DNA of 19,860 nt from IMG/VR virus record IMGVR_UViG_2778261687_000001, positions 1 through 19,860 of that record; one strand, 5' to 3'. Below, piece after piece: positions 449 to 3,770 of this stretch. Each line of letters begins with the position of its first letter. Within the stretch, counting starts at the first letter, position 1. The DNA comes from a virus. Lineage: Duplodnaviria > Heunggongvirae > Uroviricota > Caudoviricetes. The notes under the pieces are model-generated. The model was not told the DNA's origin and searched no databases. It saw nothing but the letters and a program-made list of their open reading frames with translations. Made by a program: the position numbers and the translations under genes.

Positions 449-640
449 TTAAAGCCCTGCCGGGACTTCGTTATTATCCATGCGAATAACTTTATCGACC
501 GGATAACAGTTACCGGGAATTTTCTGTTCCGCTGCGGCAGCCATGCATTCTTTCATTGAGCCGTATACGCCAGTAACCATGTCAACCGGTTCACCGGAAA
601 CAAGAAAAACCGTCAGAACAAGTGCAAATGTGGTATTCAT
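449..640 (-). CDS. ydfD: YdfD-like small membrane (lysis-associated) protein, 63 aa
   Basis: Internal ATG of track ORF 449..694 with AGGA upstream; translation MNTTFALVLTVFLVSGEPVD... has an N-terminal hydrophobic helix; start overlaps the upstream gene stop (ATGA); matches my recollection of Qin YdfD in length and sequence. Confidence 0.6.
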   Translation of the reverse strand: MNTTFALVLTVFLVSGEPVDMVTGVYGSMKECMAAAAEQKIPGNCYPVDKVIRMDNNEVPAGL

Positions 641-825
641 TGCCAGTATCCTTTTTGAGTCGGACGTAAACGGGCCAGCATAGAAAGAATGCAAATTTGA
701 TTTAATAACTCCCGTTCGTGTTTTCTCTTATTAATGGCATCTTCAGTAAATACAGGGTTACTGATTCTGACACCAATTTCAAAACAACCTTCAGACGTAT
801 TAACGTTTGGTAATAACGTTTCCAT
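637..825 (-). CDS. dicB: Cell-division inhibitor DicB-like protein, 62 aa
   Basis: Track ORF translation METLLPNVNTSEGCFEIGVRISNPVFTEDAINKRKHERELLNQICILSMLARLRPTQKGYWQ closely resembles DicB as I recall it (62 aa); sits just downstream of a DicF-like terminator hairpin, as in the Qin dicB operon. Confidence 0.7.
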   Translation of the reverse strand: METLLPNVNTSEGCFEIGVRISNPVFTEDAINKRKHERELLNQICILSMLARLRPTQKGYWQ

Positions 826-1002: not shown

Positions 1003-1066
1003 CTTTAAAAAGGGCGGACATCAGCCAGCAATGAAACTGATGCCGCCAAAGGTACAAATCAACATG
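1003..1066 (-). ncRNA. dicF: DicF-like small RNA (3' intrinsic terminator plus upstream UUUGGCGG...AUCAGUUU core)
   Basis: Minus-strand RNA reads ...UUGAUUUGUACCUUUGGCGGCAUCAGUUUCAUUGCUGGCUGAUGUCCGCCCUUUUU; stem GGCGGCAUCAG/CUGAUG-CCGCC followed by U5. It shares the UUUGGCGG, AUCAGUUU and GCCGCCCUUUUU-type blocks with E. coli DicF as I recall it and sits immediately upstream of dicB. Ends are approximate. Confidence 0.4.
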
Positions 1067-1361
1067 GAGTGTTGTAGCGGGGTTGTCACTCAGGCGTATG
1101 GTCAACCTGACAACCCGGTGCTACCAGTGGGGGTAAGGATAACCCCGCCATACTTACCGCCGCGCCATTTCGCGGAGTGCCACAACCGGAAGCGCACGGT
1201 CGAAGATACCGGCGACACGCAACAGAGGGAGAAATGACTTCGCCGTGCGCTTTCGTGTTGTGTGCCTGCTTTTAACCACGTCAGGCGAGGTGGTTCCTGT
1301 CATTCCCCAACGACAAGAAATCTGTATAATCTGGATATCCCCAACGATCCAAGGAAATCAT

Positions 1362-1508
1362 ATGACAGAGCAAAGAGCACAAGCAGGTGGTGGCAATTCG
1401 ACACATAAAACAGTCTGGGATCACATACCAGAGAAAAACATTCGACCAAAACCATCTCCAGCTCCTTCGGAGGAGAGGGGGAACAGCAACAACCAAACAA
1501 GCAGGTGA
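1362..1508 (+). CDS. Possible small leader ORF (48 aa, hydrophilic, low complexity)
   Basis: ATG at 1362 with AAGGAAA Shine-Dalgarno; extended -10 TGTATAAT at about 1322-1331. Composition (MTEQRAQAGGGNSTHK...) is not convincingly protein-like, so this may be an untranslated leader. Confidence 0.25.
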   Translation: MTEQRAQAGGGNSTHKTVWDHIPEKNIRPKPSPAPSEERGNSNNQTSR

Positions 1509-1514
1509 TGATGT

Positions 1515-1961
1515 ATGGACCGGGATGATATTCTTGACAGAATTTTATATGGCTATTTTCTTGAGCAACTATTTTCTGTAGCGACTGGTCGTCTCGATAA
1601 ACTTCTCTCAGTGGTGAGTATTATCCTCGGTTCATCTGTCATTGGCGGATTCATTCCGGAAATTTCTGGCGTTTTTATTGTTGTGATCGCAACCGTCCAA
1701 ACGATTTATGGATTCGGACAAAAGTCAGGTAACGCCATGAGAAAATCCGCAGAATATTTGCAGCTTTTTGATGATGCAGAAAAATATTCTGATTCTGAAT
1801 TGAAAATGCAGTTAAAAATTCTGGAAAAAACGGATGATCATATTTGGTCATCACTTAAAGATATTGCGATCTTAAAAACACAGATCAAAATAGGCGTTTC
1901 CATCGAACAACAAGAGAAGCTGCCCACAAAATCTAAATTGATGCGATTTCTTTGTGGTTAG
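1515..1961 (+). CDS. Two-TM inner-membrane protein, 148 aa; candidate superinfection-exclusion (SieB-like topology) protein
   Basis: Track ORF with AGGTGA Shine-Dalgarno 7 nt upstream; two adjacent hydrophobic helices (about residues 30-67) then an 80-aa charged C-terminal region; opposite strand to the surrounding early-left genes, at the position where Rac carries sieB. Family assignment is topology and synteny only. Confidence 0.55.
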   Translation: MDRDDILDRILYGYFLEQLFSVATGRLDKLLSVVSIILGSSVIGGFIPEISGVFIVVIATVQTIYGFGQKSGNAMRKSAEYLQLFDDAEKYSDSELKMQLKILEKTDDHIWSSLKDIAILKTQIKIGVSIEQQEKLPTKSKLMRFLCG

Positions 1962-2039
1962 GAATATCCAGAATGTTAAAGAGCATGCCGGAGATTTATC
2001 CGTGTCCGGCGCATGTTCTCCACCTCACCCGTGGAGAAC

Positions 2040-2426
2040 TTAATGATTAATTGATATTTTATAGTTGGCTTCAACTTTCCCATCTGAAGTGGGATGCTTT
2101 AAATCACAGGAATTAATGTTGCACTCAGTAAAATGGTTTTTAAGGGGTTCTATTCGAATCCCTTTCTTTTCCATCAACAAACCAAACCCCTTGTTAATGA
2201 TATCCATTAATTCCAGGAAGTATTTTTCAGAGGAATCATGCTTATCAGAGTGCTGCTTCTCTTCGTACAACCCGATAAAGGCACGGCGCACGTTACCGGA
2301 TATATTATCTATGGTTTCTTTTTCTACGGTACTCAGGTCAAGAGTCGCCAATTGAGAACGAACTATATTCGCTGCCATTTCCTGGAAAGGTGTTGGTAAA
2401 TCTTTAAATTCCATCGTTAATCTCAT
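2040..2426 (-). CDS. Hypothetical protein, 128 aa, AT-rich
   Basis: Track ORF; start ATG overlaps the stop of the upstream YdfA-like gene (TGATG); convergent with 1515..1961 and separated from it by two hairpins (1988-2011 and 2014-2035). No family recognised. Confidence 0.55.
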   Translation of the reverse strand: MRLTMEFKDLPTPFQEMAANIVRSQLATLDLSTVEKETIDNISGNVRRAFIGLYEEKQHSDKHDSSEKYFLELMDIINKGFGLLMEKKGIRIEPLKNHFTECNINSCDLKHPTSDGKVEANYKISINH

Positions 2427-2578
2427 CAGTCAGTATTTCTGGATAACCAGCGACGCGCGCCAGCTTCGGTTTTAAACGTTTTGCTTTTGGTATACGTCAT
2501 CGCGGTGAACGTACCGTCCTGGTTGGGAAACACGCCACATACCAGAGATTCGCTGTTGCCAAGATCGATAGTATCCAT
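2426..2578 (-). CDS. Small YdfA/YdaF-like (DUF1391-type) protein, 50 aa
   Basis: Internal ATG at 2578-2576 with GAGGT 4 nt upstream; translation MDTIDLGNSESLVCGVFPNQDGTFTAMTYTKSKTFKTEAGARRWLSRNTD; first gene of the leftward operon next to an operator-like repeat region. Confidence 0.5.
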   Translation of the reverse strand: MDTIDLGNSESLVCGVFPNQDGTFTAMTYTKSKTFKTEAGARRWLSRNTD

Positions 2579-2754
2579 GTTGACCTCATTTCCCCTTAAC
2601 GCCGGGGTAGCGGAACAAAAACCTGCTGCATAGTTAAAGTTGAACCCTGCCGTCATGTTCTTACGCCTCGGGCTGGCTACTTAACCCCTGACCACTGCCT
2701 GGTAACTCGAAGTATTGCCCGGCGTTCTGTGGGGCGGGGTGGGTTGGTAAAACA

Positions 2755-2859: not shown

Positions 2860-3141
2860 TTATCTGGGAAACTGACGTCTGGCGTGTACGATACTTACAA
2901 TTTCAATACTTGAAGCGGCCACACGGTAAAGAATTATATAATTAGGGTGGGCCACAATCTCACGCAAGCCAGGCACTCTGTCGCTTGGTGGATATAAATA
3001 CGGATGCTCAGATAACGGCAGTACGCAAGCTCTTAAGCGCTTCCACAAACGTTCTGCCGCATCTATGTCGAAACGTGCAATATAACTAGTTATATCATCT
3101 AGGTCGGCATCTGCGCTTTCAAGCCATAACACGGGTAACAT
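2860..3141 (-). CDS. RelE/ParE-family type II toxin, 93 aa
   Basis: Track ORF MLPVLWLESADADLDDITSYIARFDIDAAERLW...HARRQFPR; typical size and residue pattern of the ParE/RelE superfamily; lies 3 bp downstream of a small antitoxin-sized gene. Confidence 0.65.
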   Translation of the reverse strand: MLPVLWLESADADLDDITSYIARFDIDAAERLWKRLRACVLPLSEHPYLYPPSDRVPGLREIVAHPNYIILYRVAASSIEIVSIVHARRQFPR

Positions 3142-3144
3142 TTA

Positions 3145-3333
3145 CTACTTGCTCCGTTCCTTGCGTATTTTAGCAAAGCGTTCTGCCATTCTGCGCTCAA
3201 CCTCGTCATGGGGAATTGCTGGGCGCGGATCTGCAAGGCTTGCTGCTACTTTCGCACGCAGCCATTCGTTGTAACTGTTTTCTTGTTCAATGGTTTCAAA
3301 CTCAGAAACCATTGGTGAAAGGGCTGTATTCAT
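3145..3333 (-). CDS. Putative type II antitoxin, 62 aa
   Basis: Internal ATG at 3333-3331 with GAGGT 7 nt upstream; small charged protein (MNTALSPMVSEFETIEQENSYNEWLRAKVAASLADPRPAIPHDEVERRMAERFAKIRKERSK) immediately upstream of the ParE-like toxin and immediately downstream of the repressor gene. Confidence 0.5.
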   Translation of the reverse strand: MNTALSPMVSEFETIEQENSYNEWLRAKVAASLADPRPAIPHDEVERRMAERFAKIRKERSK

Positions 3334-3362
3334 TACATACCTCATCTTATGGATGATATAGA

Positions 3363-3770
3363 TTATGCTCGATGCCCTTTCTGGGCTGCGAGCCACCGTG
3401 CGACAGTGCGATCCATTGACTCTTTTTTGTCTTTCATATCTTTTAACATTTGTTCTTGATCTTCCTCTGGAAATGCTCCGAAAGTTTGAAGCAATTCTCT
3501 TTGTCTGGGACCTATTTTCATTGTATCAGGCACTACGACTTGCTCTTCTTCGCTTGGCGGTAACATAAACCAATACGGAGGAAAGCCCGTCACTTCGGAA
3601 AGCTTATCGAGATTAGCCGTTGATGGGCTTGTGATGCCATGAACCCACTTTTGGACCGATTGTTGGGCAACACCAATCCTGCGGGCTAGTTCTGCCTGCT
3701 TAAGTCCTGTTTTTTCCAGCACCAATTTTATTCGGTACGTGGTTATTTCAAGGGTAGTCATTCGCTTCAT
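3363..3770 (-). CDS. Prophage repressor, DicA/RacR-like HTH-XRE, 135 aa
   Basis: N-terminal HTH (LKQAELARRIGVAQQSVQKWVHG) and a C-terminal region resembling DicA as I recall it (RELLQTFGAFPEEDQEQ...); divergent from the Cro-like gene across operator repeats. Confidence 0.8.
   Translation of the reverse strand: MKRMTTLEITTYRIKLVLEKTGLKQAELARRIGVAQQSVQKWVHGITSPSTANLDKLSEVTGFPPYWFMLPPSEEEQVVVPDTMKIGPRQRELLQTFGAFPEEDQEQMLKDMKDKKESMDRTVARWLAAQKGHRA

Follow-up and report, generated by a model that had tools for sequence, protein, structure and literature searches.

In the 19,860-nucleotide (nt) viral sequence IMGVR_UViG_2778261687_000001 of IMG/VR, analysed over its whole length and referred to here as the window, we identified a self-contained cassette of 0.7 kb (~1264-1995) which, judging from sequence comparison, consists of a control region, an open reading frame (ORF) of 48 amino acids (aa) and an ORF of 148 aa encoding a predicted membrane protein with two transmembrane (TM) segments. 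The cassette lies in the early region of a Rac/Qin-type lambdoid prophage of Escherichia coli, where it forms a portable two-gene accessory ("moron") unit inserted in the slot of the exclusion gene sieB. By analogy with SieB and with SLATT membrane effectors, we favour the view that, under control of the sieB type, the cassette provides an alternative effector of superinfection exclusion or abortive infection, a reading to which we give a probability of about 0.55. The elements of the cassette and of its right-hand border are listed below with their positions and strands in the window (SD, Shine-Dalgarno sequence).

1264-1295, minus strand: core of the control region, reading AACCACCUCGCCUGACGUGGUUAAAAGCAGGC; predicted H-type pseudoknot that matches the 3' end of P22 sas
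1294-1319, minus strand: GGGG-loop hairpin of 10-11 bp, overlapping the sense -35 region on the plus strand
1304-1313, plus strand: box 1 (TCCCCAACGA), first direct-repeat copy, in the hairpin/-35 region
1325-1332, plus strand: -10 of the sense promoter, either TATAAT (1325-1330) or TAATCT (1327-1332), aligned with the P22 -10 TAAACT
1338-1347, plus strand: box 2 (TCCCCAACGA), second copy, +1 to +10 of the predicted sense mRNA
1362-1508, plus strand: 48-aa basic, Pro-rich ORF, first cistron; SD AAGGA at 1351-1355, 6 nt before the start
1515-1961, plus strand: 148-aa two-TM protein, SLATT-like
1987-2010 and 2015-2039: two hairpins between the convergent genes, with stems GCCGGA/TCCGGC and GTTCTCCAC/GTGGAGAAC, respectively
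2040-2414, minus strand: 124-aa protein of the early-left operon, outside the cassette

The borders of the cassette were defined by aligning the window with E. coli ML35, which carries the 124-aa gene without the 148-aa gene. This alignment revealed a discrete insertion from ~1264 to ~1995 that leaves the 124-aa gene outside. The right junction lies at or within the first hairpin (1987-2010), and because this hairpin is present in loci with and without the cassette, we consider it part of the prophage backbone. The hairpin pair folds with z = -4.35 on the plus strand and -2.72 on the minus strand, and a good U tract is absent from both hairpins.

A preliminary description of this DNA had treated the entire interval as a single accessory island, in which the 148-aa protein and a convergent 128-aa protein might form a membrane-effector defence module. 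Neither proposal survived the ML35 alignment and a survey of 5426 complete E. coli genomes. The entire stretch from 1000 to 2700 was found in 14 of these genomes. The 148-aa gene was present in 72 and the 124-aa gene in 695 at a coverage of at least 80% (1334 if its N-terminal part alone is counted), and the two genes occurred jointly in 14. In strain RM12761, the 148-aa gene directly adjoins the DUF1391 gene and there is no 124-aa gene; in GB089, it stands beside a 71-aa gene plus ydfB. The genome distribution together with the ML35 junctions therefore indicates that the proposed island is made of two unrelated units and leaves the two-protein module unsupported. By the same type of sequence comparison, the true two-gene unit is the small ORF followed by the 148-aa ORF.

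Relatives of the 148-aa protein sharing 47-68% identity with it were found in Proteus, Salmonella, Xenorhabdus, Sodalis, Symbiopectobacterium and Phlomobacter. The cassette is carried by lambdoid prophages in Proteus, in one case directly next to an N homologue, by a P2-like element in Salmonella, and within a tail-gene region in Xenorhabdus. It moves alone among lambdoid, P2-like and myovirus-like prophages of at least 8 genera. In the Proteus, Salmonella and Xenorhabdus loci for which the neighbours were listed, it is the lone plus-strand gene amid minus-strand phage genes, and no homologue of the 124-aa gene accompanies it. Insect symbionts (Sodalis, Phlomobacter and Symbiopectobacterium) also carry the cassette, which is present in triplicate in each of two Symbiopectobacterium genomes; in these insect-symbiont loci (L136-L141, L143-L145) the small ORF is disrupted in some copies.

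The 48-aa leader ORF proposed in the preliminary description was confirmed, as it is preceded by an SD sequence and its coding frame is kept in eight divergent lineages. Its stop codon falls within the SD sequence of the 148-aa gene. Furthermore, at every intact locus an ORF of 38-52 aa precedes the large ORF and ends 3-18 nt before its start. The frame and a motif, H-[IML]-P-x-K-x-[IV]-R-P-x-P-x-P, are retained in E. coli variants, Proteus, Salmonella, Xenorhabdus, Symbiopectobacterium and Phlomobacter, in which the partner protein is only ~50% identical. In one E. coli variant, the N-terminal half of the small ORF is replaced, with a 12-nt in-frame change of length. Since both frame and motif survive despite DNA divergence, the small ORF is very probably translated. 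It matched zero families in Pfam, NCBIfam, PHROGs and PADLOC. Several homologues of the peptide (L031, L040, L139, L005, L008) contain 4-6 consecutive prolines, some as PPPPPP; the peptide of the window has no PP pair. Such proline runs suggest that translation of the peptide, and possibly of the coupled membrane protein, may depend on elongation factor P, a possible input to the system.

The ~100 nt upstream of the small ORF are conserved between genera to a degree that exceeds that of the proteins. As far as can be judged from the alignments, this region is homologous to the sieB promoter of lambda, P22 and Rac and to P22 sas. In the P22 record (BK000583), the sieB promoter is annotated at 29690-29720 and the RNA start at 29727, and alignment with P22 places the predicted start of the sense transcript of the window at ~1338. 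A TAnnnT hexamer is found at the -10 position in all class B leaders. An extended -10 promoter driving the cassette on the strand opposite the early-left operon had been proposed beforehand. The existence of a separate promoter on that strand agrees with the homology to the annotated P22 sieB promoter, and its location is supported by the P22 alignment (TATAAT at 1325-1330). The proposed form of the promoter was not upheld, as TGTATAAT departs from the canonical extended -10 (TGnTATAAT) and a generic sigma-70 scan called zero promoters between 900 and 2900. Only the alignment of the -10 with the P22 sieB promoter and its mapped start supports the promoter call.

The position of the cassette leads to the same gene. 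In K-12 Rac, the order KilS, sieB (plus strand), ydaF (DUF1391) defines the slot that the cassette occupies in the window, and a DicF/KilS-type small RNA is the left marker of this slot in both prophages. The control element sits immediately upstream of sieB in lambda, and a diverged copy of it is found upstream of sieB in K-12 Rac. The earlier suggestion of a classic position for exclusion genes of the sieB or rex type therefore holds for sieB, through the synteny with K-12 Rac and the upstream homology with lambda, P22 and Rac. Furthermore, the element of the window is the reverse complement of the published P22 sas sequence (PMC13397905, Table 2); the core differs from P22 sas by 2 substitutions and 1 indel, and hairpin, -10 and box follow in identical order. 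According to secondary sources, sas is an antisense RNA under whose action translation of sieB yields Esc in place of SieB, and its length is given in a secondary source as 105 nt.

The control region extends well beyond this cassette. An exact piece of 30-35 nt was found at 2277 places in 2023 of the 5426 complete E. coli genomes, where it is never annotated, and the number of IMG/VR contigs with an 18-nt piece of it is at least 120, a short accessory gene following the element in every case. Among the loci that were fetched, the first gene after the element encodes variously a 106-aa membrane protein, a 66-aa zinc-ribbon protein, another 66-aa protein, coiled-coil/zinc-ribbon proteins, or proteins of 61, 71 and 93 aa. 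True SieB genes also follow the same core, with PF14163 matches of 1e-29 and 27 bits. No family of Rfam 15 matches the control element. A second class of leaders (L011, L012, L013, L030 and others) was also observed, in which the pseudoknot core is joined directly to an SD-containing hairpin; the stem of this hairpin holds an anti-SD/SD pair that covaries (TAAAA/TTTTA, TCTT/AAGA, CTGAG/CTCGAG), and there is no duplicated box. Leaders of this second class head the 106-aa protein, which is multi-TM, the 66-aa zinc-ribbon protein and the other 66-aa protein. A TGT-N12-ACA site of the P2 Ogr type at 1298-1315 was dropped from consideration as it is not conserved in other leaders.

The core of the control region, present as a single exact copy in the window with zero expected by chance, is predicted to fold on the minus strand as a pseudoknot comprising stem a (AACCAC/GUGGUU), stem b (GCCUG/CAGGC) and an A-rich loop 3. 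Compensatory changes affect 5 of the 6 pairs of stem a, which reads CUAC/GUAG in Salmonella, ACCCUC/GAGGGU in Sodalis and Symbiopectobacterium, and GGCGCG/CGCGCC in Phlomobacter. The changes in stem b are exclusively G.U-compatible on the minus strand, plus GCCCGG/CCGGGC in K-12 Rac. In total, 95% of the alignment cells were paired and 0 of 500 shuffles reached the observed values, this count being made on an alignment registered by hand to fit the structure and representing ~5 independent stem types. The adjacent hairpin of the window folds at -11.1 kcal/mol on the minus strand and at -3.2 kcal/mol on the plus strand, and of 25 leader variants, 24 have the better fold on the minus strand (Wilcoxon p = 1.3e-5, for variants that are not independent). 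The minus-strand hairpin is the more stable because its wobble pairs turn into A.C mismatches on the other strand. Moreover, core and hairpin lie upstream of the sense start and would therefore act as RNA only on the minus strand. A riboswitch-like leader on the plus strand was considered and dropped, since the start mapped in P22 leaves the core untranscribed in the sense direction and the G.U/A.C asymmetry favours the minus strand. As sas, at 105 nt, is as long as the interval that separates the sieB AUG from the end of the pseudoknot, we infer that the pseudoknot is the protected 3' end of an antisense RNA.

The -10 is flanked by a direct repeat. In the window, the two boxes are spaced by 34 nt, and 0 of 500 shuffles reached the observed repeat length; across this leader class, the repeat measures 8-14 nt, its copies lie on either side of the -10 and their spacing is constant at 33-34 nt. 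The lambda boxes (L132) lie at ~1439-1448 and ~1473-1482, and those of P22 (L134) at equivalent positions. Both copies co-vary by leader type, reading TCCCCAACGA in the window, ACCCCTACAG in lambda and P22, and TTCCACAGTCAA, CCCCAATGCAA or TTCCCACAAC in other leaders. The hairpin loop is GGGG in the CCCCAAC-type leader of the window and in the ACCCCTACAG-type leaders of lambda and P22, and it is larger in leaders of the TTCCACAGTCAA type. The GGGG loop of the antisense hairpin has its complement in the CCCC of box 2. From these sequences, the loop could form a type-specific kissing contact with the 5' end of the mRNA; alternatively, the boxes could be tandem binding sites for a protein.

The 148-aa ORF agrees with the two-TM protein proposed from the sequence. 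Hydropathy places its two hydrophobic segments at residues 30-47 and 50-67, separated by a Pro-Glu turn, and an AlphaFold2 model built from a 13-sequence alignment is in accordance with them. This model is all-helical (predicted local distance difference test, pLDDT, 88; predicted TM-score, pTM, 0.79), with a long N-terminal helix running into TM1 (30-47), then TM2 (50-67) and 3-4 C-terminal helices; both termini are predicted to face one side of the membrane. The protein matches phrog_6315 (function unknown) at 1.4e-23. A HMMER search of 1.84 billion representatives defined a family of 145 clusters at 50% identity, whose members are stand-alone proteins of 140-190 aa.

The preliminary description had left open whether this protein is SieB, a call that our results contradict. 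Neither the 148-aa protein nor 112 relatives matched PF14163 (SieB) at the E-value limits used, and lambda SieB, used as positive control, matched it at 1e-29. Alignment of the 148-aa family to a SieB alignment with hhalign returned a probability of 0.2%. By these comparisons, the protein is outside the SieB family.

Instead, several sub-threshold similarities point to SLATT proteins. The PADLOC model RTasSLATT matches the 148-aa protein with E = 0.002. Among the 112 family members, 28 matched NCBIfam SLATT_4 at E < 0.01 (best 1.2e-5), 4 matched SLATT_1, 2 matched the related mob_CxxC_CxxC, and each other family was matched by at most 1 member. The SLATT_4 alignments are co-linear, pairing residues ~28-110 with profile positions ~28-119 of 154, which correspond to the TM hairpin and the next helix; their scores of 16-22 bits do not reach the curated cut-offs of 55 (SLATT_4) and 41 (SLATT_1). 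The Pfam SLATT models matched none of 7 and none of 112 family members. A Foldseek search of the model against BFVD gave SLATT-annotated proteins for 11 of the top 23 hits (probability 0.75-1.0, TM-score 0.38-0.62, E 0.03-0.5), and no informative structural neighbour was found in the PDB. Taken together, these observations make a remote SLATT-like fold likely; strict membership in the SLATT family is not established. SLATT proteins are described as predicted pore-forming toxins and as an indispensable part of the DRT10 defence system (bioRxiv 10.64898/2026.04.29.721553).

A scheme can be proposed in which the lysogen would make, from the sieB-type promoter (-10 at 1325-1332, start at ~1338), an mRNA with a short leader, encoding the 48-aa peptide and, by translational coupling, the 148-aa SLATT-like protein. 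Once a superinfecting phage is sensed, the 148-aa protein would permeabilise or depolarise the inner membrane and thereby abort the infection, by analogy with SieB and SLATT effectors. The small peptide may act as partner of the membrane protein, whether sensor, inhibitor or regulator. The opposite strand would encode the 3' module of a sas-like antisense RNA, made of the GGGG-loop hairpin and the pseudoknot. When the minus strand is transcribed by an induced prophage or a related phage, the resulting sas-like RNA would base-pair with the sense mRNA over its 5' end, SD and start and switch the cassette off, conferring self-immunity as in P22.

Several results weigh against this exclusion scheme. 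No esc-like internal ORF was found in the cassette, whose internal Met codons were not examined functionally, and the "translation switch" of P22 cannot carry over directly for lack of such an ORF. No sigma-70-like antisense promoter was recognised, neither in the window nor in P22. SLATT proteins are normally accompanied by a nucleotide-generating or reverse transcriptase (RT) partner, and no cyclase, SMODS, SLOG, TIR or RT partner gene is present near the cassette in the window and in loci L001-L009. Finally, a check of the cassette against defence databases, PADLOC included, gave no model that matches it as a system.

Other explanations have to be considered on the same evidence. The most serious is a lysogenic-conversion or addiction module unrelated to exclusion, either a toxin-antitoxin-type pair or a membrane protein acting on host physiology. 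Two translationally coupled genes for a small protein and a membrane protein would fit such a module, as would the multiple copies in insect-symbiont genomes rich in degraded prophages and the lack of a defence-database match. However, the control region is common with the exclusion gene sieB, which belongs to the varied cargo of the element, and the SLATT-like fold is typical of immune effectors; as both arguments are associations, we judge this explanation unlikely but not negligible. A role of the 148-aa protein in the phage lytic cycle, as a holin/antiholin-like protein or as a host-killing protein like Kil or DicB, could be read from its small size, its two TM segments and its vicinity to the host-killing gene dicB and the DicF-like RNA. 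Its gene is nevertheless on the strand opposite the early-left operon behind a promoter homologous to that of sieB, which is expressed in the lysogen, it is distant from the lysis cassette, and it occupies unrelated positions in other types of phage, such as the tail region in Xenorhabdus. A lytic function is thus improbable.

Still less credit is due to the idea that the 148-aa protein is a divergent SieB working exactly like SieB/Esc. Slot, promoter and antisense control region are those of sieB in lambda, P22 and Rac, and the product is a membrane protein of similar size, but membership at the sequence level is refuted by the PF14163 and hhalign results obtained with the protein and its relatives, and a separate upstream small ORF is found rather than an internal esc start. 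We consider this version very improbable. The two-component membrane-effector module of 148-aa and convergent 128-aa proteins comes last: the two genes are indeed adjacent and convergent across two hairpins in the window and in 13 other complete E. coli genomes, yet their distribution in RM12761, GB089, ML35 and other genera refutes the pairing and the second gene runs in the same direction as the early-left DUF1391 gene and directly adjoins it, which leaves this module with hardly any plausibility. An exclusion or abortive-infection effector under sieB-type control therefore remains the interpretation that we prefer.

The genes sieB, esc and sas date back to 1993 in the literature, and SLATT proteins to 2015; the sieB/esc/sas system and the self-immunity logic of P22 sas were reportedly described by Ranade and Poteete. 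The cassette resembles the sieB/esc/sas locus of P22, lambda and Rac in occupying the same slot on the opposite strand inside the early-left operon, in having a homologous promoter with a -10 aligned to the mapped P22 promoter, and in sharing the homologous minus-strand element (pseudoknot core, GGGG-loop hairpin and duplicated box). In both, the cargo is a small inner-membrane protein, here a predicted one. It differs in that SieB is encoded by one gene with an internal esc start whereas the cassette has two separate cistrons, in that its cargo is not homologous to SieB, and in the box sequence (CCCCAACGA in the cassette, ACCCCTACAG at the sieB locus). With SLATT proteins, the 148-aa protein shares a two-TM helical hairpin with flanking helices, the co-linear sub-threshold hidden Markov model matches, the BFVD neighbours, and a context of mobile elements and immunity. 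Unlike them, it scores far below the cut-offs and lacks a cyclase, SLOG, TIR or RT partner; its companions are instead a Pro-rich peptide of 38-52 aa and a control region of the antisense-RNA type. Moron genes and the P2/P4 hotspots (Rousset et al. 2022, PMC9122126) also combine a fixed slot with interchangeable cargo and own expression signals; in the P2/P4 hotspots the flanking core genes are constant, whereas here a ~100-nt control region travels with the cargo, even into non-lambdoid phages. In the literature that could be searched, we found no description of the 148-aa family, of its pairing with the peptide or of the breadth of the sas-type element that heads the cargo, and nothing on the core sequence or on a hotspot in the sieB slot.

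The convergent ORF beyond the two hairpins is present as first described (2040-2426, minus strand), with the qualification that a protein of 124 aa is more likely than one of 128 aa. The Prokaryotic Genome Annotation Pipeline (PGAP) and the PHROG profile both support a start at MEFKDL (2414); a start at 2426 would give 128 aa and an overlap with the DUF1391 stop codon. Both genes are read in the same direction, and the 124-aa gene directly abuts the stop of its early-left DUF1391 neighbour. Its product matches phrog_6937 at 1e-71, with 227 homologue clusters, and is by this similarity a common early-left protein, function unassigned. No similarity to K-12 YdfC or to the 71-aa neighbour in GB089 was detected, and its AlphaFold2 model is poor (pLDDT 59). 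The protein appears modular, as its N-terminal ~63 aa are common to phrog_1363, 2151 and 9419 and also occur in 133-aa E. coli proteins with unrelated C-termini.

The DicF-like RNA and the YdfA-like gene flank the region as initially described. The remaining features of this part of the prophage are the following.

Early-left side, minus strand: exonuclease fragment
449-694, minus strand: DUF1482/YdfD-like gene
637-825, minus strand: dicB
1012-1060, minus strand: DicF/KilS-family small RNA with terminator (Rfam 38.7 bits, gathering score 48, E = 2e-6)
2426-2656, minus strand: DUF1391/YdfA-like gene
2860-3396, minus strand: ParE toxin (PF05016, 6e-17) and PaaA2-type antitoxin (PF21217, 2e-20)
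Beyond the ParE/PaaA2 pair, seen from the DUF1391 gene: helix-turn-helix repressor-like gene

The terminator hairpin of the RNA at 1012-1060 is nearer to K-12 Rac KilS than to Qin DicF, and we therefore regard this RNA as a variant of the DicF/KilS family. Between it and dicB, a sub-threshold Rfam match to STnc100 was observed at 848-1000 on the minus strand (36.7 bits, gathering score 47). In RM8082, PGAP annotates a 68-aa hypothetical protein at the equivalent of 1031-1237 on the plus strand; this ORF is probably spurious, since it overlaps not only the DicF-like RNA but also a non-coding part of the early-left transcript, highly conserved and rich in hairpins. Among the other loci listed, RM12761 alone has a RelE/ParE-RelB pair where the window has ParE/PaaA2; RM8082, GB089 and ML35 lack one. 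The late region of the prophage contains a tRNA gene (14856-14927, plus strand, Rfam 51.6 bits).

A broader proposal can be put forward, tentatively and as a doubtful one. The ~100-nt region may be a portable "self-immune expression platform" that heads a largely uncharacterised repertoire of exclusion genes in ~1/3 of E. coli genomes; a promoter active in the lysogen would face a pseudoknot-stabilised antisense RNA on the opposite strand, the two co-varying boxes setting the recognition type, and the Pro-rich peptide and stand-alone SLATT-like pore may constitute a new two-component abortive-infection system devoid of a nucleotide-signalling partner. If the cassette does exclude phages, it would represent a stand-alone SLATT-like effector governed by a peptide and an antisense RNA and not by a nucleotide second messenger, which would widen the view of how SLATT pores are triggered. 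Candidate superinfection-exclusion genes could be recognised by using the control element itself as a tag ("guilt by leader"), and the element could also help to establish whether the self-immunity logic of P22 sas is general.

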